A stretch of 63,997 nucleotides of DNA, filler included, from Stramenopiles sp. TOSAG23-3 (lineage: Eukaryota): assembly GCA_900128585.1 (NCBI GenBank). It is 20 parts of 20 records of this genome, joined end to end, with 100 filler letters (N's around TTAATTAATTAA, not from the genome) between each part and the next. Parts side by side here need not be neighbours in the genome. Positions count along the whole stretch, not along the records: positions 51,469 to 54,565 come from LT644417.1; 19 more parts are not named here. One strand, given 5' to 3'. The notes beneath the pieces were generated by a model. It did no database searches. It worked only from the letters and a program-made list of their open reading frames with translations, and was not told the origin of the DNA. Of this stretch, positions 6,456 to 54,666 are shown piece after piece (within the stretch, counting starts at the first letter, position 1; each line of letters opens with the position of its first letter). The position numbers were made by a program, and so were the translations under genes.

Positions 6456-8441
6456 GCTCTTCTCTTTGTTCGGGCCGTACTTGATCTTTGCTTTCGTGCC
6501 AGGCTTCATCTCCTCCGTGACCGTAACTTCCACCATGTTCAATCCCGCCGCGCTATTTTCAGGCGGGAGAAGGGGCACAAAATTCGCTTCTGGCGCTGGG
6601 GGCCCTGCCTCCTCCAGTGGAAGAGGAACTTTTAGCATCGTTCCCACAGAGACACCCTCTGGAATAACGTAAACAAAATCTTTCTCTTTGTTCTCCCCGT
6701 AGCGGATGGTGACTTCCATCCCGCTTTCCATTCCCTCCACCACGGTGAAGGAGACTGCCTCATGCTGGACCGCATTGTCTTCTTTCGGCGTTGTGGTATC
6801 AGCAGCAGTGTCGGTAAGGTCAATATTGTGCTCCAGAAGCAGTGCTTTCAATCGATCGTTCTCTGCACGTAGTTCCGCATGGGAATCTTCCTCTTCAAGT
6901 TCATCTTCACCAGGGGCCTTTGTTGACATTTTTTTCACCAAGGTGTCCGTTAACTCGGACGTGCTGCCAGACGCGCCCGCCATCAGCTTGCAAAATTCTT
7001 CAAAGTTCAACTCTTCTGCCCCAGTACTACTTGCGTTGCGGATCATGCTCTTCACTCGCAGCTTTGACACGCTCAACCCCCGCATTCGTAAGAGTACCGT
7101 GAGCTCTTCGCAGTCGATCGTCCCCCCCTTGTCGGTATCTACCAGTTCGAATACGTCGCGCATGTGTTCGACATTGATGCCGTCCAACGCGTCCAATTCA
7201 CGCTGTTTCTTGTCAACTTTACCCTTGCACCTCCCAAGAATTTTTTCTTCCAGTTTGTGCTCGATGGCATATTCACGAACGAGGTGGCCGACCAGGTAAA
7301 AGAAGCAGATGAGGTTGATTAGTATCAGAAACCCTTGCAGGCCAATAATTTGCCATTCCTTACCATCTTCGTTATCGGATTCCAGTTGAAACATCATCAA
7401 TCCTCCCCACATGGTCAGCCACCCCACCGCCAACGCAGCAGCCTCCATTATGTGCAGAACACCGTTGGAGCTTTCAAACGGGATGAAGTAAAGGTGCAAG
7501 ACCAGCGAGATGAACAGTATGAACAGCGCCATGTGCGTCTGGATTTCGACTGGGGCCATCCTGCCCAGCAGCCCAACGAATATGAAAAAAACTTTTCGAA
7601 TACAGACCACCGCTTCCCACCAGTAGCGCTCCAAACGGTAACCATGGTGCAGAAGGCCAAACCGGAAGCCGATGTCTGGCCGCGCCAAGTGCTGTTTGTG
7701 CTTTCGCATCATGTAAACTGCGAAGCCAGGCAAACCGAACACCCACACTATTATTTGCCCAATGCCCAACGTCAGCACCATCACCAGGTGGCGGCCTTGA
7801 AAACATTGTTCCTGCAAATCAGCGTCCAGGTAGGCCAGGGGCCCCACTCGTTTGCATGCGAACAACGATATTGTTTTGTTGCAAATTGTTGGGTACATAA
7901 GGAACAGCGTCACAACGTTTGTAAGAATAATGTGGTCAAGAACAGTGAATTTTTCAGCCTTTCCAATGATGTCGTGCAACCCTTTCCGTTTCACGCATGC
8001 AACAACAAGCCACAGAAAAGAAAAGAATGCAGGAACGATCACCGGCAAAATGGCATAAAACGCTATAACTTTGTAAAAGTCATTGGCCTTGTCAACAGAT
8101 GAAAATTCACAGTCAGGACTGGCAAACTCGCTAATGTTTCCGATAACGGATTGGAATTTGAACAGATCCAGCAGCGCCTGGGGCCAGCGCAGCGGGAAAT
8201 TAGCCGCGAGCGCGCTAATTCCCATCCAATTGAGAATGATCTTTTTTATCGCATCGGAAATTCCCTCTTTCCCTCCGCTCTTGACCACCATCGCGACCAT
8301 ACCCATTACAACCAAGAACATCAAGAAGAACATCAGAACAAGGAAGCCGCGTGTAGTGCCTTTGCCTGGGCACTTTGAGCAGCGCTTGGACGTCTTCATG
8401 GTGTAACAACGCGTGCTACGCGCACCCGTGAAAGTAGCATT
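6456..8441 (-). CDS. Multi-pass membrane protein with cytosolic EF-hand pair, short coiled coil and a repeated small beta domain; 3'-truncated, 5' exon(s) uncertain
   Basis: About 10 hydrophobic helices. YPTICNKTISLFAC...YLDADLQEQC and YRLERYWWEAVVCIRK are typical of protist TRP-C-terminal-like membrane proteins. EF loops DTDKGGTIDCEEL and SSTGAEELNFEEF. Candidate acceptor (ACTAAT...AG) near 8442 and GTAAGT donors near 8759 and 9053. Confidence 0.75.
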
Positions 8442-9789
8442 CTTATATATTAGTTTCTGGTATCGTTTTATGTTATCAAGAAAACAAAAGAAGAAAATGT
8501 TCGATCCTTCATGAAACCAAACAACCAATGTTCAACAATTGTGTTTAAATTCTAAACTAACTGTAAACCGTCGTCGACTATTGTTCATTATCTTTTCCCC
8601 ACCACCATATAAAATCAAAAAAAATTACATCTCATTCATATTATTAGTTGACTTAAAATCTTTTTTTTTTCTTCTTACTTTCTTCTTCTTCTTCAGCAAT
8701 AATACTAAATACGGTAGTCAAGTCTAGTCATATTATCCATTATCTTCTTTCTTACTTACCTGTAAAAGAAGAAAAATATTTTAAAATTCTACTCTGTACA
8801 TAATATAAGCTCGAATCTCTACAAATAAGGCATACATGTAAGTGGAGTAAGCAACACAAAAAACAAGCCAACCACAATTATTAGTGGTATTATTATGAAG
8901 GAAGGCATGCGGCATGGCCTCCTTATAATGTTGAGTCCTAACGAAATTTTCATATTTTAATGCTGTGTGATGTATGATGTACGAGGAAGGAAGTGACCTC
9001 GTGAAATACACAGTAGTTAAAATCAAGAAGATGTAATCTAAAACAACACTTACCTATGTATTGAATATTGCACACACAGATTACATTGTGAAATTTTCTG
9101 CTCTTTCTGTTTCGTTGTTAGTGGAGTTAGATTGTTGCTGGCGCTGCGCTGCCAATTTCAAATAATATTATCGCTAAAAATAAAATGAGATGATGATACG
9201 ATGGGATGATGGATGTGATATTATAGTTATTGTTGTAGTGTCTAATAGTAGAGAAGATCTATAAATTATTATTTTTTATTATTACAGTATTTATTATTTT
9301 TTTTGAATTGTTGAGAAGATGAAAAAAAGAAGAGCATCGCATTGTTGAACATTGTTTTCATTCTTTGGATAAAGAGTATGTGATTCAATTTGTATATACA
9401 CTGTATAATCAACGAAACGAATATCATATGCTAGAAACGCCTTTCTGATAATTGTAGGGTAACTTTCGTTTTGTTTAGAAATCAAAACTGTACAAGAGTG
9501 CCACTGGACATGTCGAAACCAATTAGACTGACGGTGGGTCCACCGACAAAGAAGGTCGACAAGGGGCCGTCGAAGTGCTACNNNNNNNNNNNNNNNNNNN
9601 NNNNNNNNNNNNNNNNNNNNNNNNNTTAATTAATTAANNNNNNNNNNNNNNNNNNNNNNNNNNNNNNNNNNNNNNNNNNNNCATTTGTTATAATTCATTC
9701 TACCAACAACAATTTCATTAAAAAAGAAAAAAAGAAAAAAAAAAAAAAGAAAGTTTTTAGTAGAGTTTGCCGCGAAATCACAAGGAGGA

Positions 9790-10100: not shown

Positions 10101-10273
10101 AAAAAGAGAAGAAAGAGAAACACGAAAGGCATTTTGAAGAAGTGAACTTTTGTACACTTAGATCTACTATATATATTCGGGCCGACGTCTTCTTCATAAT
10201 CCAGTCATATATTGAAACGATACCCTTTACCACTTCTTTCTTTTTCATCCCCTTTTGACGCGACAGCCATACG

Positions 10274-12493
10274 ATGCCACCAAAAAAGAAGGCGAAAAGC
10301 ACCTCGGGTCGGTCAGGTCGGGTCCAGAAGAAAGAGCAGGCGCAACAGAAGAGTGCCGCTGCGTTTTTTGCGGACAACCAGGCAATCGCCGGGTTCGACA
10401 ACCCTGGGAAAGCGCTGTACACGACCATACGCGAGCTAGTGGAGAATAGTTTGGATGCCGCCGAAAGCATCCAAGTGCTCCCGTCCATCCAGCTCACCAT
10501 CACAGAGTTGACGCAAACTCAGTTCGACGGCATCCGTGGGTCGAAGAAGCGAGAGCGCGGCGATGGTTCCCTGTACGACGACCGCGAGGTGGACTCAAAG
10601 GGGCGCTTGGTAAAGATTAAGAAGAGCGCCGCGGGCGCGCCCGCCCCTGGCGCCGCCTCCCAGGAGCTTCCCCCGACCGCCGTCACGGGCATGCCCGCGC
10701 CTGGCGAAGGGAACGCCCCGGACATTGCCAAGCACGGCAGCGTTGGCGTTGCCCCGTCGCAGGAGGCTATGCAGCCGCCCGCAAAGAAAAAAAAGAAGAG
10801 GGGCGGGCCGAAACGGCTGGGGTTTTACAAGATTGTCTGCCGTGACAATGGCATGGGGATGCCCACCGACAAAGTCGGGGATATGCTTGGCCGCGTTCTG
10901 TCGGGGAGCAAGTACGGGCTGCGGCAGACGCGGGGGAAGTTTGGGCTCGGGGCGAAAATGGCCCTGATCTGGTCGAAGAAGAGCACGGGCCTTCCGATCC
11001 ACATTCGAACTGCGTACGGCATCGACGGCCGCGATGTGCCCGGGCCGACGGTGTCCAGCACGTCCCTGGACATTGATATTTTGAAAAACCAGCCGAACAT
11101 TTTGTCGCAAGAGGTCGTGGAGAATACCGAAAAGTGGCGCGGGACGGAGTTCACCGTTGTCATCGAGGGCAACTGGCAATGGTCGAAGTCGAAAGTGCAG
11201 CAGTACATGAGTTCCTTGGCCGTGGTGACGCCCTTTGCAGAATTCACCCTGACGTTCGACTCCGAAGAGTCCCCGGGGAAATCGTTTGAGCTGAAGTACG
11301 AGCGCCGGTCGGAGCGCATCCCGCCGCCAGCGCAGACCATCGAGTACCACCCGAAGTCGGTGAACCAGCTGACCGTCAAGCAGCTCATCGACGTCATGCC
11401 CCCCGCGACCCGCTTGTCGTCCTTTCTGAACAAAAAGTTCCAGTGCATCAGCACAAAGCTAGCCGCCAGGCTTGTCCAAGAGTTGGGCTATGACCCGAAG
11501 ATCAAGCTGAGGGACATCGGGGACGAGCAGCAGATACACAACATCACCCAGCTGTTGAGGCACGGAAAGTTCCCAGACCCAAGCGGCAAGTGCCTGTCGC
11601 CCGCCGGCGAGTACAACTTAAAGCTGGGGATTCTCAAAGAGTTCAACCCCGACGCGTGCGCGACGGGGCAATCGAAGGTTGAGGTGTTCGACGGGCACCC
11701 GTTCATTGTGGAGGCCGGGGTGTCCATTGGGGGCGCGACGAAGGAGGGCATTCAAGTCTACCGGTTTGCAAACCGAATCCCTCTCCTTTTCGAGCAAGGA
11801 AGCGACGTGGTGACTAAAGTGGCCAAGAAAGAAATTAACTGGACGTCGTACCATATAAACAAGAACAACGACAAAATTGGCGTCTTCGTGTCGATCGTAT
11901 CCACGAAAATCCCGTTCAAAGGGACGGGAAAAGAGTTTATTTCCGCCGACAACAAAATTTACTACACCGCAATCAAGAATGTCATCCGAAAGTGTTGCAA
12001 CGTTCTGAAGCACAGCCTGAAGAAGCGGAAAGCGAACAAGGCGAACGCGGAGCGCACGCGCGCCTTGGAACGCTACGTCCCGTCTGTCTGCCGCGCCATC
12101 GTATCAGTGTTGAAAGACATCAAAAAAGGCAAGAACGACGAGCAAAACCAGCTTCTGAAGGCTATTAAAAAGAAAGACATCTCAGAAACTGAACTCATAG
12201 CCAAGTTGAAGGAATCCATTCAAAAGCACGACGAAAACGAGTTGGCTCGAATGGCGGCCAAAGGGGGGTTGACCATCAAGAGCGACGATCGCATTGATTT
12301 GTTTTTGAAGCCCATCGACGCGAAGGACGCCAGTAATTTTGCCTTTGACTTGCACAATTCGTCGGGGTTTACGCCAAGCATTACATTTCGATTGTTGAAA
12401 GGGCTGATGAAGCAAGAGGAAGAAACAGTGGCCGGAGAGTGTGCAAAGACGGTAACTGCTGCGCCCGACGAGGGGGTCATCGACCTCAGCTAA
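10274..12493 (+). CDS. TOP6B: DNA topoisomerase VI subunit B (plant/algal type)
   Basis: GHKL motifs YTTIRELVENSLDAAE, DNGMGM and QTRGKFGLGAKMALIWSK, plus GTEF. Transducer motifs GHPFIVEAG, RFANRIPLLFEQG and STKIPFKGTGKE. Complete, no introns. Confidence 0.95.
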   Translation: MPPKKKAKSTSGRSGRVQKKEQAQQKSAAAFFADNQAIAGFDNPGKALYTTIRELVENSLDAAESIQVLPSIQLTITELTQTQFDGIRGSKKRERGDGSLYDDREVDSKGRLVKIKKSAAGAPAPGAASQELPPTAVTGMPAPGEGNAPDIAKHGSVGVAPSQEAMQPPAKKKKKRGGPKRLGFYKIVCRDNGMGMPTDKVGDMLGRVLSGSKYGLRQTRGKFGLGAKMALIWSKKSTGLPIHIRTAYGIDGRDVPGPTVSSTSLDIDILKNQPNILSQEVVENTEKWRGTEFTVVIEGNWQWSKSKVQQYMSSLAVVTPFAEFTLTFDSEESPGKSFELKYERRSERIPPPAQTIEYHPKSVNQLTVKQLIDVMPPATRLSSFLNKKFQCISTKLAARLVQELGYDPKIKLRDIGDEQQIHNITQLLRHGKFPDPSGKCLSPAGEYNLKLGILKEFNPDACATGQSKVEVFDGHPFIVEAGVSIGGATKEGIQVYRFANRIPLLFEQGSDVVTKVAKKEINWTSYHINKNNDKIGVFVSIVSTKIPFKGTGKEFISADNKIYYTAIKNVIRKCCNVLKHSLKKRKANKANAERTRALERYVPSVCRAIVSVLKDIKKGKNDEQNQLLKAIKKKDISETELIAKLKESIQKHDENELARMAAKGGLTIKSDDRIDLFLKPIDAKDASNFAFDLHNSSGFTPSITFRLLKGLMKQEEETVAGECAKTVTAAPDEGVIDLS

Positions 12494-25680: not shown

Positions 25681-25849
25681 ATNNNNNNNNNNNNNNNNNN
25701 NNNNNNNNNNNNNNNNNNNNNNNNNNTTAATTAATTAANNNNNNNNNNNNNNNNNNNNNNNNNNNNNNNNNNNNNNNNNNNNTATAATACGAGCGAGAGG
25801 AACACACCTAAACGAGGAAACACATTTTAAATATTTTTAATTATTATGA

Positions 25850-28800
25850 TAACAGTCGTTCGTGTAGTTTCGATCAGGCGTTGTAATTGTTGCAATTGCT
25901 TTTTGTTGTAATTCTGAAGAGCATTAGCTTCACCGTCTTCAATGTCCTTAAATGCTTGAAATACTTCCCTTACGTAGTAAATTGCATTAATAAGGAGGGA
26001 GATTTGGGCCGGATCTTTGGGTTCCTCGTCGGCAGCTTTGTCCAACAACCATGTAATTCGCTCTTGTGTGGGGTAACGCTCCAAACTCTTTTTCATGGTT
26101 CCAGTCATTGTAGCTTTCATTTGGTCCAATAGCGTTTGCAAGTAGATTTCTGGCTTTCCCTCTAGCTTCACAGGAGACGCAAAGCGCGTGGTTTCTTTTC
26201 CAACATCGGCGACCCAGCGAACGGCAGATGGCCGTGAATTGTCGGATGGCATATCTTTTGGGTCCAATTCAAATGTTTTGGTTGCCAAGAATACTGCGGT
26301 GGTGTGTTTCATGATCTTGTGCGGTTGCGAGCCATTACTTAGCAAATCGAGCAACTGTGCCTCCGACACAAAGTAAAATCGAGGGAAGATACGTTGTTTT
26401 CCAGACAGGAAATCCTTCAAGGACTTTTTGCACAGGCTCAATCGTTCGTTGATATCTTCCAGCTTCTTGAACCGGCCCTCAACCACACAAGTTTCCTTAA
26501 CATTTCCTGTGTTGGTCGCATCTTTCAAAATAACTTTTAAGTCCTGGTCTACACCAACGAAGCGTTTTGCATCTTCAGGCAATTCCTTTTTTACTTCATC
26601 CGAGCCCACAAAAAGTGGTTCAAGATACGACCAAGTGCCTTGAATCTCTCCTAAAAGAGTGAAAATATCTGCAATATTATTCAATGCACTGTTCCAACTA
26701 TGGATCTGATCTTCAAACGTCATCATGTATCGGTTCCCGAGCATACTTTGAACCGTCAGTTGATCCGCTTCAAGTTGCTCAAAATCTTCGTCAAGCATTT
26801 TCAAGAGCTTCACCTCTTCTGCACTGGCTCCATGGGTCGTGAAAGTATCAAACTCCCAGTCCACCGACGACCATTGATTTTCAAGATTTGCAATGTTCAC
26901 TTCCATTTTCTCTTCTTTTTGTGACTGATCCGTGATTTCGTCAACTTGTTCACCGTATTCGTGCAAATTCAGTTCCAGAAGGCCACCAAGTTTCAATTCT
27001 GGATCTTGGTACGGAGGCGTGAATTCCTTTCCTGTTGCTTTCATAAGTAACGCCCAGTGACGGGGTCGCATACTTTGATGGTGCAGCGCAACTATCAGAG
27101 GGCACGTTGCCAAGAAGTCTTTTACCGATTTCTCCGTCTCTAAGTAAACATTACTGAACTTAATTGACCGGTTTGTCTTTTTAACACTTTTCATGAATTC
27201 TTTTGCAGTCTCTTCCATAACGTTGGCGTCAATCGATGCCCATAGTGCTTCATGGGTTTCTGCGAAATACTTCAGGCATTTCTCGGTGATGTTCCAAAGG
27301 TTTCGGGCCCATCCCAACATATCGTCAATGTTTTGCAAGAGTTGTTTTGCCTTTTCCATTACTTCTGGGAATTCGAACATGGTTGCAATATGCAACATTT
27401 TTTCGTACTTCACTCGTTTAGTAGCCTGGATCGTCTTAGCATCATCCAGCATTTGTTTGGCTTGTTTTGGACTTGTTGTAAACGACCAGAACCGGTTTTG
27501 TTTGAACTCCTTCAAGTAGGTTTCTAAATCCGACGTAAAATTGGCCGTATCGATTTTTGTTCGCGCACCGTGGCGTTTAATGTGTGGAACAATTTGGACC
27601 TTGGTGGCCGGCAACTGTTTCAAGCATGAATCTAGTTTGTTAGTGCAGTCTTTCACAGTGGCTATCATTTGGGCTGGTTTATTCCCTCCCATGTTTTCAC
27701 GAACTAAATGCTCAAGCATAGCTGCAATCCTGTCGGTTTGAATCTTGTTTGAATCTTGCTTCACTTGAACAGCGTGCAGCCTTTCCATAACGGACAGCAG
27801 AGAATCGACGTCATCTTCTGGGACTTTGTTTCGCAGGGCGGACAAGGTTTTCTGCGCAAAAGCAAGAAGTTTACCCAACTCCGCTTCAACGGCATCAATG
27901 ACCATGCTGCCGTCAAATTTGTTCTGCGAGTCTGTAGTTTTGCTTTGATACGACACATTAACGGGAGATCCGGCGATATGGCCGGCTTCGCCTTCAAAGG
28001 TGCCTTCGAACACGCACGATATTTTGTAGGATCCTGTGTCCCCTACTTCAAACGTCGCTTTGTAAAGCCCATTACTAATGTATTCCATTTCAGGCTCGAT
28101 TTCTCGACCTCCTGAATGGGCGACCGTAATGGTAAATTCATCTCCCTCGCTTACGCGGTTGTTCCCCCCGGCATCTCGAGATTGCACGTAAAACTCCGTT
28201 TGGAGTTCCGCAGCCGTGCCAGAAATGAGTGCAGGACCGTACATAATGCACTGGTTACAGTTTGCCACGGAGAAAAACCCGTACGTCTGAAATGTAGTTG
28301 TGAGTGCATTGCCATTCAACGCAACTCGCACGATAACGTCGCCAGGGCCTAAACTGGAAAAGTTCGGCGTCATGCACACAAGGGTGTTCTCGTCAACAAA
28401 ATCTGCGCTTGCTTCCAAGAAATGTTTTCCACGGGTGAAGCGCACGGTAATTTGGCTCGTGCTGACAAAATCAATCCCGATAATTTTCAGTCGGGCGCCG
28501 CCAGTGATTGGACCATTTGCTGGCTCGAGACCCATAATCGCGTAAGGTGGGCCGACGATATTGCTGACATCGACAGTGTGAATGTCCTGAAACCATTCGT
28601 TTGACCACCCGCCGAAGCACAAAAGCCTGCTGTTCTTTGAATCGTATACCATTTCAGTGTCCGCCCTCGGAGCAGGAAGCTCTCCAACAATGTCCGGCTT
28701 CTGCACGGCCATGCTTCCACAATCTAATACGATGAGATCGTTGGAATAAGACGAGCGGGTGTTTCGATCGTTGACGAGGCCCGTGGACCCACCGAACACA

Positions 28801-28895
28801 AACAGCCTCCAGTTAGGGATTGCCGCGACTGCAACTGCCGAGTGGCACCATCGCGACACGCCAAGGTCTACCTCGGTTTGGGACCATGTCCACTG
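25850..28895 (-). CDS. Partial axonemal dynein heavy chain with kelch, IPT/TIG and filamin-like N-terminus (outer-arm alpha type)
   Basis: Kelch repeats (LFVFGG, LLCFGGW), GPITGG TIG motif, filamin-like HIAGSP, then DHC_N2 motifs MRPRHW, WSYLEPLFVGS and KQRIFPRFYFVSEAQLLDLLSNG. Truncated at both ends. Confidence 0.9.
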
Positions 28896-29405
28896 ATNNN
28901 NNNNNNNNNNNNNNNNNNNNNNNNNNNNNNNNNNNNNNNNNTTAATTAATTAANNNNNNNNNNNNNNNNNNNNNNNNNNNNNNNNNNNNNNNNNNNNGAA
29001 AAACGCTGGGTTGACAACCCGTTGTATGGCATGGAATTAACATCATCTTAGTTAACTCTAATCCTAACTTAGGGGAGTAAAAATAACTTCTTAAAGTTAA
29101 GCTATAAAGCTTCATGTAGACAAAAGCAAATTACGAGTACATTGTCAAGGAAGGCTGAGCTTGGAGAAACTTCAGCAGTGGTCACACTAACTTAAAAAAA
29201 AGAAATTATATACTACTACATGCTTTTTAAGACTCTCATTTCATATCAATTACGATTTCAGTTCCAACTCTTAACATAAAATGGATTTTTTAATTTGATT
29301 TTTTTAATTTCGTTAGTTGTCAATCACTAAAGGAATATCTAAATTAAAAGCAAGTTATCATAAATATTTGTTTTAAAAGTTAAAAGCTTATATGTACCCT
29401 CGGAA

Positions 29406-32112: not shown

Positions 32113-32344
32113 NNNNNNNNNNNNNNNNNNNNNNNNNNNNNNNNNNNNNNNNNNNNTTAATTAATTAANNNNNNNNNNNNNNNNNNNNNNNNNNNNNNNN
32201 NNNNNNNNNNNNTTGTTGTTGTTGTTCTTTTTGTATTCTATTTTGTTCTTTTTCCGAATTTACTCACTTTAGTGTTCCGAACTTGTACTCAACTGAGAAT
32301 GAAACAAGAAAAGTGTGAGGTCGGCCATCTCGTACGAAAAACCA

Positions 32345-35005
32345 ATGCACGATTCAGACGAGAGGATGAATATTGTTGTTGCACGGACCAGCGTCCCAAT
32401 ATGTTCGCACTGTCGCCGTTCCTCTATTGAACAGTTCTCCAGGTCGCAACGGAAACGATGGCGGCAAAACAAGCCTGCGGTCTGTACGCAGTGCCAACAG
32501 ATGGGGCCAGCGAAGGAAACAAAAACATCTGGTAGGGAACGTCAGTTCACACCAGATGCAATGTGCGTTTGTGTGCCTCAGCCTTATGCTTCACTCATCG
32601 TATCTGGGTTCTACCGTTGTATTCCCACGCGTAGTGCGGAACTGAAGGGGTACAGGGGAACACTGTGGATTGCCAGCAAGGAAAAGCACTCCCGCACCGA
32701 CCTTCTTACGGAGTTGAAATCAATTGAAGTTTTTTGTGATCGGGATGTTAACGTGGCAAACAAGGCAAAACTGTTAAACCACGCGAATCGTTCCTGTTTA
32801 TTGGGGTCCGTAGAGGTGGACGAAGGGGCGTTGAACCCAGTTGAAGAATTTAAAGGCTACTGCCTTGCCGAATACGAAAAGTGCAATCGGTTCGCAATTA
32901 GGTTCCGGGATGCGAAACGACTCGTCCTTCCGCTTCCTATGGATATGTCGGGCGCCAAGTCTGCTATTATCGTGTTACGAAAGAAAATGCTTGACTCGGC
33001 TCGGATGCAGTCGCCTACTCCGTCGCCACCAGTCATGCAGCCTTTGGAATCGTTAAGTTCGCGCTTCGACAGCACAATAAGCGAGCAACCAAATAGCGAC
33101 GAAAGCAAAATCTCCCCAAGCAGGCCAAGGCAGCCAGCGGAGAGTTTCTACGAACGGAACGCATATTCACTATGCGAAGAGAGTTCCGTTCCCCAAGACA
33201 GTGTCACGATAGTTTGGTTTCGCCAGGATCTACGGATACAGGATAACCCTGCGTTGTACAATGCCGCAAAAACTGGGTCAAGGTTAGTCTTTGTGTACAT
33301 CCATCCCAAAGACAGCGAAGAAGGCGGCTGGCCAATGGGCGAGGCAGCAAGAGTGTGGACGAAGCACGCCCTTATGAACTTGTCGCGTTCGCTGTTCTCT
33401 CTTTACAATAGCCCGCTGCTCATGGCCAACGCCGCGTCGTTTGAGAATGGTACGGCCGGGGCACTGCAGCGCTTGGTCAGCAGCGTCGGTGCAGGGGCGA
33501 TATTTTACAACAGAGTGTACGAGCCATGGAAGTGCGCCCAAGACAAAGAGATTCAGAGATATTTTGAATGCTTCGGAGTTAAAATGGTATCGTTCAAAGG
33601 CGTGGTAATTTATGAACCGTGGGAGGCCCGATGCGACGAGAAAGATGCTGCCATGAGATTAGGCTTTGGAAGTGTAGGTTTCTTTCTTAGAGCATGCCAA
33701 AATATTGAAATCGATTCAATCCCGCTGCGAGAGCCAATGCACGCGAATGGGTACCAGTTCAGAAAGGGGAATGTCCCGCAATATTTTTGCTTTGATGCAG
33801 ACGATCTGAATCTGTACTCACTCCCAAAGAGGCACGCTTGTGAGAAGGACAAACGGTGGGGGAGAAAGTCTTGTAAGTTTTGTGCTGTCAAATACGGAAT
33901 CGTTTCCGACTCCCTTTGTCCCCACGGTCGATCGGGCCCTATTGATTGGACGATCAACATGACAGAATTTTGGGACATGTCCGAACATGGCGGCCAACGA
34001 GCCTTGGCCGAGTTTATGGACAATGGTATTACGGAATTTGAAACACGCGAGAAGCACCGGGGCGATAAGAAAGGAACATCTCTGCTAAGCCCCTACGTTC
34101 GCTTTGGCCAACTGTCGGCGCGCCAAATTTTGTATGAAGTGAAAGCCAAGTATGGCAACGCGGCATCCCGTTCCTATCTGAGAAAGTTTGCATGGCGGGA
34201 CCTGAGCTACTGGTTTTTATGGCGTTTCCCGAACGTATGCGACGTCAGTTTTAGACCGCATTACGAAAAGCAGTCCTGGACATACGACGAAAAACTACTT
34301 CGAAAGTGGCAGGAAGGGAAAACGGGGTTCCCGCTCGTAGACGCTGCAATGCGGCAATTGTGGTGCGTCGGTTACATGCCAAACTACCTTAGGCATGTCG
34401 TTGCAGGGTTTCTGATTGAATATTTGAACATGGATTGGAAGCATGGGTTCAAGTGGTTTCACGACACGCTTGTCGACGCAGACGTAGCCATCCAGGCGTA
34501 CATGTGGCAAAACGGTGGGGGGTGCGGCACCGATTCGTGGAATTTTGTAATGCACCCTGTGAATGCCGCAAAAGCGACGGACCCAGAGGGAGACTATGTG
34601 CGGAAGTGGGTCCCGGAGCTGAGGCATCTGCCTGCCGGGCTCATCCATTGCCCGTGGGAGGCCGACTTGGGGACCCTTTGTGCCGCGAACGTGCGGCTAG
34701 GAGGAACGTATACACGTCGCGTTGTAAAGGACTTGGAGCGCGCGCACCGAAAAAACTTCAACGCGGTCATGAACATTCGGGATGGAATTGGGAAGAAATA
34801 CATCCTGCCCTCTGGCCACGAGGGCATTGTTTTGGATAATGGAAAAGTTGCTGTCTGCATCACACGAGTTGATTACAGAGAAAAAGAAATCTGCACGTTC
34901 CAAACCCCTGAAGAGAAATGGGATAAACGAAAACGGTTGGCGAATGGTGATATTCGAGGCCATGTCTTGCGCCAAGAGATTATGAACCATGAGAAACGCT
35001 GCTGA
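32345..35005 (+). CDS. Cryptochrome/photolyase (plant-like CRY type) fused to an N-terminal Cys4 zinc finger and ASCH domain
   Basis: IVWFRQDLRIQDNPAL, TSLLSPYVRFGQLS, WQEGKTGFPLVDAAMRQLW, LVDAD, DPEGDYVRKWVPEL. N-terminus has CSHC...FSRSQ...CTQC and QPYASLIVSG...YRGTLWIAS...CLLGSVEV. Start ATG 32345 (or 32366). Confidence 0.9.
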   Translation: MHDSDERMNIVVARTSVPICSHCRRSSIEQFSRSQRKRWRQNKPAVCTQCQQMGPAKETKTSGRERQFTPDAMCVCVPQPYASLIVSGFYRCIPTRSAELKGYRGTLWIASKEKHSRTDLLTELKSIEVFCDRDVNVANKAKLLNHANRSCLLGSVEVDEGALNPVEEFKGYCLAEYEKCNRFAIRFRDAKRLVLPLPMDMSGAKSAIIVLRKKMLDSARMQSPTPSPPVMQPLESLSSRFDSTISEQPNSDESKISPSRPRQPAESFYERNAYSLCEESSVPQDSVTIVWFRQDLRIQDNPALYNAAKTGSRLVFVYIHPKDSEEGGWPMGEAARVWTKHALMNLSRSLFSLYNSPLLMANAASFENGTAGALQRLVSSVGAGAIFYNRVYEPWKCAQDKEIQRYFECFGVKMVSFKGVVIYEPWEARCDEKDAAMRLGFGSVGFFLRACQNIEIDSIPLREPMHANGYQFRKGNVPQYFCFDADDLNLYSLPKRHACEKDKRWGRKSCKFCAVKYGIVSDSLCPHGRSGPIDWTINMTEFWDMSEHGGQRALAEFMDNGITEFETREKHRGDKKGTSLLSPYVRFGQLSARQILYEVKAKYGNAASRSYLRKFAWRDLSYWFLWRFPNVCDVSFRPHYEKQSWTYDEKLLRKWQEGKTGFPLVDAAMRQLWCVGYMPNYLRHVVAGFLIEYLNMDWKHGFKWFHDTLVDADVAIQAYMWQNGGGCGTDSWNFVMHPVNAAKATDPEGDYVRKWVPELRHLPAGLIHCPWEADLGTLCAANVRLGGTYTRRVVKDLERAHRKNFNAVMNIRDGIGKKYILPSGHEGIVLDNGKVAVCITRVDYREKEICTFQTPEEKWDKRKRLANGDIRGHVLRQEIMNHEKRC

Positions 35006-51368: not shown

Positions 51369-51470
51369 NNNNNNNNNNNNNNNNNNNNNNNNNNNNNNNN
51401 NNNNNNNNNNNNTTAATTAATTAANNNNNNNNNNNNNNNNNNNNNNNNNNNNNNNNNNNNNNNNNNNNGG

Positions 51471-53025: not shown

Positions 53026-54564
53026 TTAGTGCAGTGCCTTGGTCCACCTTCCACCAACACAGCTGTTTACAATTAATCCTTCAGCGGATCCACCGAAAAT
53101 ACAACTCCCCATCACCTCGTCAACTGGAGCCCCTCTCAATGAACTCGCTTTTAAGTCTAACAAGGCAAAATCTGCCCATTTACCTTTCTCGATGGTGCCA
53201 GTGTCTACTTGTAGATGCCGTGCGCCCACTACAGTTGCGCAATCGAAAAGATATTTCGAAAGGGTGCCTTTACGGTCCGGCACTACGGAAGCAAAAACGC
53301 CGCGCTGTCCACGTTTAAGCCGTTGTGTGTATTCTAACCATCGCATTTCTTCAAACATGTCAATTCTTGCATTGCAATCGGTTCCGATACTTACCTCGCC
53401 TTCAGTTGGCTCCAAAGAAAGGAAAATTCCGTCGCCAAGAGACGCCTCCGTCAATGGGCATATGCAAACACCGGCACCAGTAGAAATTAATTTGGTCAGC
53501 TCGTCCTCCCTAGAATGTGTACAGTGGACTGCGGATAGCCCTTGAAGGTGCTCTGGTGGCACCGACTCTAGCAACAGCCCCAAAGGTGTAATTCCGTGGG
53601 TCTCAATACAGTCCGAAATTTCTTGGGGTTGCTCTTCCAAATGTATGTGAAGGGGCATCTTCCGGGAGTAGGCCTCTGCTGCGAGTCGCTGCAACGATTC
53701 CACCCCTGCGGCGCGTAACGAATGTACGACGACTCCTAATTTCTCACCTCGTGAGCTATCTAAAAGCGTATCGTTCAGACGGCCCATTTGATCCCAATAT
53801 TTTTCTTGGCTTAGGGTCCGAAAGTGCTGCTGGCCCTGCCCAAGCGGGCTGTTGTCAAAACCACCTCGCTCGTAGCAGGCGTTCAGCAAAACCAAACGAA
53901 CATTGGCTTCCCGAGCGGCTTCGATGACAGCCTGGTCCATCGTGAAATCTTCGTCCTCGCCACCGCTGCTGGAGTGGTGGAAGTAGTGAAATTCTCCACA
54001 CGTTGTAATTCCAGCTGCAGCCATTTCTTCAAAGCATTGCTTTGTCTGTTCTTTAAACTTATCCACGTCGCTCAATCCGTTGACCAATTCGTACATGGCT
54101 TCGCGCCACGTCCAAAACGACGGCGTTGGGTCACCTTCAGGACCACGCGGGTAAGTTTCGCCTTTGCCTCTGAGACCTCGTTGAAATGCATGGCTGTGCG
54201 CATTGACAAACCCTGGAATAATAGCACGATTTGGAAGATGTACAATATTGTCTCCTTTGGCGTGCCCATCCTTTGGTTTGACGGATATAATTTTTCCGTC
54301 CTCTCCAATGGTGATAAAAATGTTTTTCTCAAAAGTCTTTCCTGTCCAAGTGAGCTCTGCGCTGTATGTCTTGGTTCGTTCCCCGCGTGTGACGCTACTT
54401 GCCACGCCATTATCTTCGAACGTGACTGGTTGTGGATAGCGAGAGTTCAATTCATCAGCATATTCAAAAAACTCAGTTTTTTGGTACATCTCAAAGGATT
54501 CCCACGTCATCAGCCACCCGGTGTGAGTTATATCTGGAAAAAGCTGCCCTTCCAAGTGGTCTTG
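53026..54564 (-). CDS. hutF: 5'-partial formimidoylglutamate deiminase (HutF) with an in-frame N-terminal extra domain
   Basis: PGFVNAHSHAFQRGLRG, SFWTWREAMY, GEFHYFH, HSLRA, HIHLEEQ, VHCTH, CPLTEASLGDGIF, GTDCN. Frame is open to the contig edge. Confidence 0.9.
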   Translation of the reverse strand, partial: QDHLEGQLFPDITHTGWLMTWESFEMYQKTEFFEYADELNSRYPQPVTFEDNGVASSVTRGERTKTYSAELTWTGKTFEKNIFITIGEDGKIISVKPKDGHAKGDNIVHLPNRAIIPGFVNAHSHAFQRGLRGKGETYPRGPEGDPTPSFWTWREAMYELVNGLSDVDKFKEQTKQCFEEMAAAGITTCGEFHYFHHSSSGGEDEDFTMDQAVIEAAREANVRLVLLNACYERGGFDNSPLGQGQQHFRTLSQEKYWDQMGRLNDTLLDSSRGEKLGVVVHSLRAAGVESLQRLAAEAYSRKMPLHIHLEEQPQEISDCIETHGITPLGLLLESVPPEHLQGLSAVHCTHSREDELTKLISTGAGVCICPLTEASLGDGIFLSLEPTEGEVSIGTDCNARIDMFEEMRWLEYTQRLKRGQRGVFASVVPDRKGTLSKYLFDCATVVGARHLQVDTGTIEKGKWADFALLDLKASSLRGAPVDEVMGSCIFGGSAEGLIVNSCVGGRWTKALH

Positions 54565-54666
54565 CNNNNNNNNNNNNNNNNNNNNNNNNNNNNNNNNNNN
54601 NNNNNNNNNTTAATTAATTAANNNNNNNNNNNNNNNNNNNNNNNNNNNNNNNNNNNNNNNNNNNNA

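Follow-up and report, generated by a model that had tools for sequence, protein, structure and literature searches.

The five-step Hut pathway of histidine catabolism leads through HutF, which converts N-formimino-L-glutamate to N-formyl-L-glutamate and ammonia, to a deformylase, normally HutG (EC 3.5.1.68), which then yields glutamate and formate. N-formylglutamate is a formamide and contains the type of bond cleaved by peptide deformylases (PDFs). These are regarded as antibiotic targets and as enzymes with a single function, the maturation of protein N-termini, and in eukaryotes they are organellar. Here we describe a gene in a 63,997-nucleotide stretch of DNA from Stramenopiles sp. TOSAG23-3 (assembly GCA_900128585.1; termed the window below) that joins these two systems. 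We conclude with good confidence that it encodes an enzyme with two domains and some 667 residues, namely a predicted N-formylglutamate deformylase of PDF type followed by HutF, the function being assigned by comparative genomics.

Within the window only part of this gene is present. Translation of the minus strand at 53026–54564 yielded 512 residues starting QDHLEGQLFPDITHTGWLMTWESFEMY (QDHLEGQLFPD), confirming the frame open to the contig edge that a sequence-only reading of this DNA had described. The frame runs up to a spacer, where the last base of the contig is 54565 and Ns follow from 54566. The G at 54565, preceding the first codon, fits on direct reading the GAG glutamate codon expected ahead of the glutamine. 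The contig thus ends inside the third PDF motif (QHEQDH), of which Q-D-H alone is visible, as had been recognized at the outset, and because of the break the window lacks the protein's first 155 residues. Besides Q-D-H, the remnant comprises LEGQLFPD and a clade-specific C-terminal helix. Scanned by themselves against Pfam, residues 1–73 of the fragment matched no family, so that the PDF remnant is not recognizable from the window by itself; the missing Pep_deformylase match is explained by the few last profile positions that survive the break.

The remainder of the fragment is a complete HutF domain. Pfam Amidohydro_1 covers residues 115–473 (E 5e-35), and the NCBIfam model for formimidoylglutamate deiminase, NF006681, covers residues 63–508 at 365 bits (cut-off 362), whereas the second HutF model, TIGR02022, yields 359.4 bits and stays under its cut-off of 413. 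Residues 232–663 of the full-length protein described below align to PDB 3mdu, an N-formimino-L-glutamate iminohydrolase (E 6e-64), with all four metal motifs matched. The intact HSH, HIHLEE, VHCTH and GTD motifs of HutF described earlier are borne out by this alignment. Pfam scans of the fragment (P0001) and of the full-length protein gave no match to PF05013 (FGase), the family of HutG.

The missing amino-terminal part was recovered by a homologue search in a collection of 5.8 billion proteins. The protein P0002 (667 residues) is identical to the fragment at 511 of 512 residues (99.8%), with the first residue of the fragment corresponding to its residue 156. Its first 155 residues complete the PDF domain (Pfam Pep_deformylase at 13–166, 136.6 bits with a cut-off of 22.8), and it also carries Amidohydro_1. 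The sequence-only reading had suspected a PDF carboxy-terminus ahead of HutF and had named beforehand, as a test, the HE residues, GxGxAAxQ and EGCLS that should lie upstream. All of them are found in P0002, as GAGIAAPQ at 56, EGCLS at 110 and QHEQDH at 153, and it is through this protein, not through a scan of the fragment, that the PDF assignment was established.

The same architecture, PF01327 with an amidohydrolase, is shared by 14 further protein clusters (P0003–P0016; 642–736 residues, 51–64% identity to the query), giving the 15 clusters with which the expectation of fused homologues was borne out. EGCLS, QHExDH and the heptapeptide NPRYPYK occur in 15/15 of these fusion proteins and GAGIA[AG]PQ in 14, the exception (P0007) being truncated at its N-terminus. 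Continuity across the junction, likewise anticipated, is evident from one uninterrupted open reading frame over both domains on two other contigs (L081, 5842–8001 of a 91-kb contig; L082, 1392–3617). Motif 3 and the HSH of HutF are separated by 116 to 181 residues in the 15 proteins. Upon 50% clustering of 1.84 billion representatives, an exhaustive search assigned the full-length fusion to one single representative (P0004), showing that the family, although real, is narrow.

Phylogenetic analysis of the HutF parts (49 rows) placed those of the fusion proteins in a clade of their own together with two standalone database proteins (support by the Shimodaira–Hasegawa-like approximate likelihood ratio test, SH-aLRT, 100), while the order of the fusion clade, an oomycete clade and bacteria was not settled (support 66). 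An AlphaFold2 model of P0002 calculated from 18 sequences reached a mean predicted local distance difference test score (pLDDT) of 70.6 and a predicted template modelling score of 0.61, values too weak for conclusions on domain packing; it contains a low-confidence helix at 176–197, followed by pLDDT values below 50 at 207–217. An ESM Atlas search with P0002 returned HutF clusters only, at 0.83 and thus under the trust level of 0.9. The rank-4 cluster of that search, named 'putative formimidoylglutamate deiminase', is 71% eukaryotic with Nematoda the commonest group, indicating that HutF is not restricted to bacteria and protists. A further HutF protein, P0322 (1265 residues), carries MutS domains II, III and V behind HutF in one predicted chain and is possibly a merged gene model.

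The fusion gene is conserved and located on eukaryotic DNA. Among its homologues, P0005 belongs to the choanoflagellate Stephanoeca diplocostata (EukProt set) and P0006 to a Paraphysomonas transcriptome of the MMETSP, and the fusion frame on L081 is flanked by an Oscp1 gene and by a gene for an ankyrin/leucine-rich-repeat protein. Near-identical DNA occurs in 14 marine metagenome DNA runs, in each of which at least half of the sampled words of the stretch were found; from DNA run X2 only a 31-base piece was placed. Short contigs from RNA libraries (metatranscriptome, oligo-dT, polyA) are identical to portions of the HutF region, none of them reaching the contig break, and provide a weak hint that the fusion gene is expressed, contigs as such being no proof of transcription. 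An artefactual origin of the fusion, be it through contig chimerism, the merging of gene calls or contaminating bacterial DNA, might be suspected from the break within the gene, from the highly fragmented assembly and from the metagenomic origin of many database members. We regard it as extremely unlikely, as the same uninterrupted frame is obtained from the window, from L081, from L082 and from two transcriptome-derived proteins, the neighbours on L081 are eukaryotic genes and the stretch recurs in the marine runs just mentioned.

We then characterized the PDF-like domain itself. A search with residues 1–200 of P0002 among shorter proteins yielded standalone relatives of about 191–200 residues with 45–54% identity to this region; the few of them with a source name are labelled as metagenome-assembled genomes of Myxococcales or Ilumatobacteraceae. 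Two standalone proteins from Myxococcales assemblies, P0180 and P0181, come nearest to the eukaryotic clade. NPRYPYK, situated between motifs 1 and 2, is invariant in 17 of these standalone relatives. In a quick tree of 108 rows, evaluated by SH-aLRT and without bootstrap, the 39 NPRYPYK rows (14 fused, 14 standalone database and 11 bacterial-genome proteins) split from 69 other bacterial PDFs with a support of 95, and the fused rows form a clade with seven standalone rows (support 99). In a column comparison, Y84, K85, L90, G150, T151, T175 and F187 (P0002 numbering) emerged as clade-specific, each occurring in at least 90% of the 39 clade rows and in few or none of the 69 other PDFs. Counted from the first catalytic His, G150 and T151 are at −4 and −3; other PDFs carry R/V/T/I and V/C/I/A there, respectively. 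The catalytic and metal positions (Cys, His, His and Glu) are invariant in the 39 rows and common to ordinary PDFs. Judged by these motifs, the PDF domain is a member of a distinct PDF clade defined by the NPRYPYK loop and the Gly-Thr before QHE, and it departs from housekeeping Def, which has hydrophobic pocket residues before QHE and is usually associated with fmt, in this Gly-Thr as well as in the location of its bacterial relatives, which is in hut operons and not at fmt.

Among solved structures, the closest are PDB 5hgw (E 1e-37), 5t8z, 6jfd and 1sv2, all of them named peptide deformylase. Two of these, 5hgw and 5t8z, have the same NPRYP loop type with ARVV before QHE. An NPRYP loop with D/N-K/A instead of Y-K, along with ARVV or AVVA before QHE, was also observed at four bacterial loci (L007, L011, L012 and L016) and in related bacterial rows, and it is from this wider set of NPRYP-loop PDFs, as a structural precursor, that the hut-linked clade seems to derive. 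The positions changed in the clade presumably belong to the S1' methionine pocket and to the 'CD loop' at its mouth; a gating CD loop is reportedly present in the Leptospira PDF. Such changes, to small or polar residues and with an additional lysine, would be suited to a carboxylate side chain.

The genomic context of the bacterial relatives carries the functional assignment. Eighty PDF loci were taken from species-representative bacterial genomes, 11 with NPRYPYK and 69 without, and hutF is directly adjacent on the same strand in 7/11 and 0/69 of them, respectively (Fisher p 1e-7). At L008, hutH and an IclR regulator are located opposite a divergent series of hutU, the PDF-like gene (7989–8558), hutF and hutI with overlapping stops and starts, where hutF reaches 591 bits with NF006681 and hutI 349 bits with TIGR01224. 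The order at L015 is likewise hutU, PDF-like gene, hutF and hutI, and that at L002 is hutF, PDF-like gene and hutI. We extended this analysis to 151 genomes of the actinobacterial class to which L008 belongs (class sample), 14 of which hold the motif and 23 hutF. Among the motif genomes, 13 of 14 have hutF within 3.1 kb on the same strand, in 11 of these 13 within 360 bp (p 7e-12). The ten hutF genomes without the exact motif include six with a PF01327 gene 14–1234 bp from hutF. In total, a PDF-family gene lies in the hutF cluster (at most 3.1 kb, same strand) in 19/23 hutF genomes, typically in the order hutU-PDF-hutF-hutI, and the exact NPRYPYK is present in 13 of these 19 genes; the four hutF genomes without a clustered PDF-family gene are G043, G057, G092 and G152.

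Paralogy is visible in the five genomes checked (G001–G005), each with exactly two PF01327 matches, of which the one outside the hut cluster, an ordinary def, adjoins fmt in 5/5. PF05013 was found in one of the five, far from the hut cluster, while the search gave no match in the other four. Of the 13 class-sample genomes with both motif and hutF, three hold PF05013, never beside hutF, and in ten none was found. The location of the bacterial relatives inside hut operons implies that probably N-formylglutamate, and not proteins, is deformylated. We thus consider it likely that the clade marked by NPRYPYK and Gly-Thr-x-QHE consists of small-molecule N-formylglutamate deformylases, which would represent the missing HutG of many Actinomycetota and would be fused to HutF in marine protists as a cytosolic, folate-free bifunctional enzyme. 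Of the earlier proposal that a PDF fold was recruited as N-formylglutamate deformylase, the association with histidine catabolism has gained ground through this operon context of the bacterial clade members, and the activity itself stands as a prediction from gene context and from the fusion.

In the proposed mechanism, the HutF domain would generate N-formyl-L-glutamate from formiminoglutamate under release of ammonia, and the PDF-like domain, no longer deformylating nascent proteins, would hydrolyse it to L-glutamate and formate, using the unchanged Cys/His/His metal site and the catalytic Glu on the formamide bond. The fusion protein would in sum convert formiminoglutamate and two H2O to glutamate, NH3 and formate, performing the last two steps of the pathway independently of folate, with the intermediate made and consumed on a single polypeptide. 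Since the linker is flexible and differs in length between homologues, the two domains seem to be tethered and not to form a rigid, fixed channel. Ahead of the PDF core we counted 7–18 residues in the 11 fusion proteins in which the LGxP core start was found, the count leaving out four that are cut at the N-terminus or variant at LGxP. This short extension makes a long organellar presequence on the fusion proteins unlikely, and the cytosol offers a true PDF few formylated N-termini.

Several observations weigh against this assignment. One motif genome of the class sample (G104) gave no hutF match, and FGase and the hut-linked PDF, examined in the same sample for mutual exclusion, do not exclude each other cleanly. 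In a sample of 251 Myxococcota genomes, 0/28 clade genes lie near hutF; on the side of the assignment, hutF itself co-occurs in 21/28 motif genomes of this sample versus 63/223 others (p 2e-6, a value that ignores shared ancestry). Three Myxococcota genomes with the clade also hold an FGase gene. In the Bacteroidota metagenome-assembled genome G007 the clade member is the sole PDF found and, if this genome is complete, must be the housekeeping enzyme there. The NCBIfam peptide deformylase model NF001159 scores standalone members at 134–160 bits, above its cut-off of 125, and the unchanged catalytic machinery may allow residual or even primary activity on N-formylmethionyl peptides. The link drawn above from the pocket changes to glutamate binding is tentative. 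A precedent also calls for caution: COG0624 (M20) had been predicted from context as 'alternative N-formylglutamate deformylase' (SEED; PMC3223725), and for this candidate a passage of the same source states that no deformylase activity was detected with the Streptomyces avermitilis protein.

Separate from these points, at L005 (7102–8561), in a Myxococcota-type genome, an NPRYPYK gene overlaps the end of an upstream M24 gene in a context unlike the hut operons. A methionine aminopeptidase beside the clade gene would have favoured a role in protein processing; this identity was rejected for the M24 gene, which scores as Xaa-Pro-peptidase-like and below the cut-offs.

These observations bear on two further explanations. 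According to one, the N-terminal domain is still an ordinary PDF acting on N-formylmethionyl peptides, and its link to HutF has no meaning for the pathway, arising for instance from co-regulation under nitrogen limitation or from chance. The fully intact catalytic motifs, the scores of standalone members above the cut-off of NCBIfam peptide deformylase models, the similar RYP loop of the nearest solved peptide deformylases and the Bacteroidota genome with this PDF only would all be compatible with it. Such an enzyme would, however, leave unexplained a fusion conserved over 15 clusters at 51–64% identity to the query, the recurrent hut-operon position in 19/23 hutF genomes of one class, the separate def-fmt pair in all five genomes checked, the two clade substitutions just ahead of the catalytic His and the lack of a long targeting peptide on the eukaryotic proteins, and we hold it to be improbable.

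The other explanation accepts a role in histidine catabolism and assigns the PDF-like domain to another bond, in formiminoglutamate or in a further N-acyl or N-formyl compound, or to a non-catalytic partnership with HutF. Context indeed ties the clade to the hut pathway and not to a substrate, and the co-occurrence of FGase in 3/13 class-sample genomes and in three Myxococcota genomes points the same way. The imino nitrogen, however, is already taken by HutF, whose product N-formylglutamate presents exactly a PDF-type formamide bond; the invariant metal ligands and catalytic Glu speak against a non-catalytic role, and for 10/13 genomes with motif and hutF no FGase was found for the step. This explanation therefore has only a slim chance of being correct, and N-formylglutamate deformylation is the function that we favour for the domain.

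The arrangement of the window sets the frame for its remaining features (Table 1). It contains 19 spacers of the form N...TTAATTAATTAA...N at sites 3173–61009, versus 0.02 expected by chance, and is a chain of spacer-joined contigs of about 3.2 kb each, hence more than one molecule; features close to the joints are assembly edges and not biology. The contig with the fusion gene is bounded by spacers at 51413 and 54610. It also encodes a convergent neighbour of 419 residues with an acidic-rich carboxy-terminal end and no visible tie to the hut pathway. A eukaryotic setting is also indicated by further contigs of the window, on which a dynein heavy chain, an IQ-repeat protein and an EF-hand protein are encoded. 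At 25827–28949 (−), a frame of 1040 residues fills a whole contig and combines Kelch, IPT/TIG and Filamin repeats with DHC_N2 (325 bits), an N-terminal make-up unusual among dynein heavy chains. A topoisomerase VI-B transducer domain was observed in a 744-residue protein at 10259–12493 (+), and a photolyase/cryptochrome of 900 residues at 32303–35005 (+) has about 300 additional N-terminal residues.

Table 1. Positions of the fusion gene and its neighbour in the window, and proteins of the related HutF-M20 architecture.
Feature	Position	Strand	Details
PDF-like domain, C-terminal remnant	54439..54565	-	fragment residues 1-42 = P0002 156-197
Inter-domain linker	54379..54438	-	fragment residues 43-62 = P0002 198-217; length varies among homologues
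Complete HutF domain	53029..54378	-	fragment residues 63-512
HutF metal motif H-S-H	54190..54198	-	residues 123-125; aligns with nlHsHafqr of 3mdu
HutF motif HIHLEE	53632..53649	-	residues 306-311; aligns with hihiaeq of 3mdu
HutF motif VHCTH	53515..53529	-	residues 346-350; aligns with vhath of 3mdu
HutF motif G-T-D	53377..53385	-	residues 394-396; aligns with igsdsh of 3mdu
Fusion-gene stop codon	53026..53028	-	from translation
Convergent neighbour, 419 residues	51471-52730	+	same contig as the fusion gene; no Pfam match at E<=1e-5
HutF-M20 proteins			P0021-P0023, P0025, P0026, P0028, P0030, P0033, P0035, P0039, P0055, P0066
HutF-M20 proteins, further			P0275, P0277, P0284-P0286, P0291, P0320, P0332

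Reaction, pathway and fold of the fusion enzyme are all known; what is new is their pairing and the fusion enzyme itself. Among the papers covered by full-text search, none was found that ties a peptide deformylase to the hut operon, to hutF or to N-formylglutamate, the co-mentions being gene lists. If the assignment is true, a free amino-acid derivative as substrate would be a new activity for the PDF fold and a third, so far unrecognized solution to the end of histidine catabolism after the FGase-type HutG and the folate/formiminoglutamase routes, the gap left by HutG in hut operons of the sampled actinobacterial class would be closed, and the automatic name 'peptide deformylase' on these genes would have to be corrected. 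The eukaryotic fusion serves as a Rosetta-stone link, and one recombinant protein makes the prediction directly testable.

Compared with PDF proper (Def, PF01327), the PDF-like domain shares the fold family, the three motifs, the metal and catalytic residues and the length of the loop between motifs 1 and 2. It differs in the invariant Tyr-Lys after RYP, where the solved relatives read D-A, and further in Gly-Thr at −4/−3, the clade-specific C-terminal helix, a hut-operon site in place of the fmt site and the eukaryotic fusion to HutF. The accessory bacterial PDFs of a recent survey (Mol Biol Evol 2025, PMC12690207) are also second PDF genes without fmt linkage; the survey frames them by mobile elements, integrons and fmt linkage, and the strings 'hut', 'urocan', 'formimi' and 'amidohydrolase' are absent from its main text. 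HutG (FGase, PF05013, EC 3.5.1.68) catalyses the same reaction that we propose for the PDF-like domain with an unrelated fold. HutF of Pseudomonas aeruginosa (PA5106, PDB 3mdu) can be aligned to the entire C-terminal domain with conserved metal motifs, whereas the fusion is set apart by the N-terminal PDF-like domain and the score under the TIGR02022 cut-off.

A parallel is provided by oomycetes (Phytophthora, Pythium, Lagenidium and Globisporangium), where HutF is likewise fused to a metal-dependent N-acyl-amino-acid hydrolase, an M20 domain of ArgE/DapE type that presumably takes the same next step. Present in 8/10 long HutF representatives, HutF-M20 is a second candidate for such a fused deformylase of N-formylglutamate, and one of much wider distribution. 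Taken together, the PDF-HutF and HutF-M20 fusions would mean that histidine catabolism in some protists ends in the bacterial manner, independently of folate, with its two final steps united in a single protein chain. The two solutions differ in the fold of the partner, which in oomycetes is located C-terminally instead of N-terminally, and in their HutF parts, those of the oomycete proteins forming a separate clade (SH-aLRT 95).

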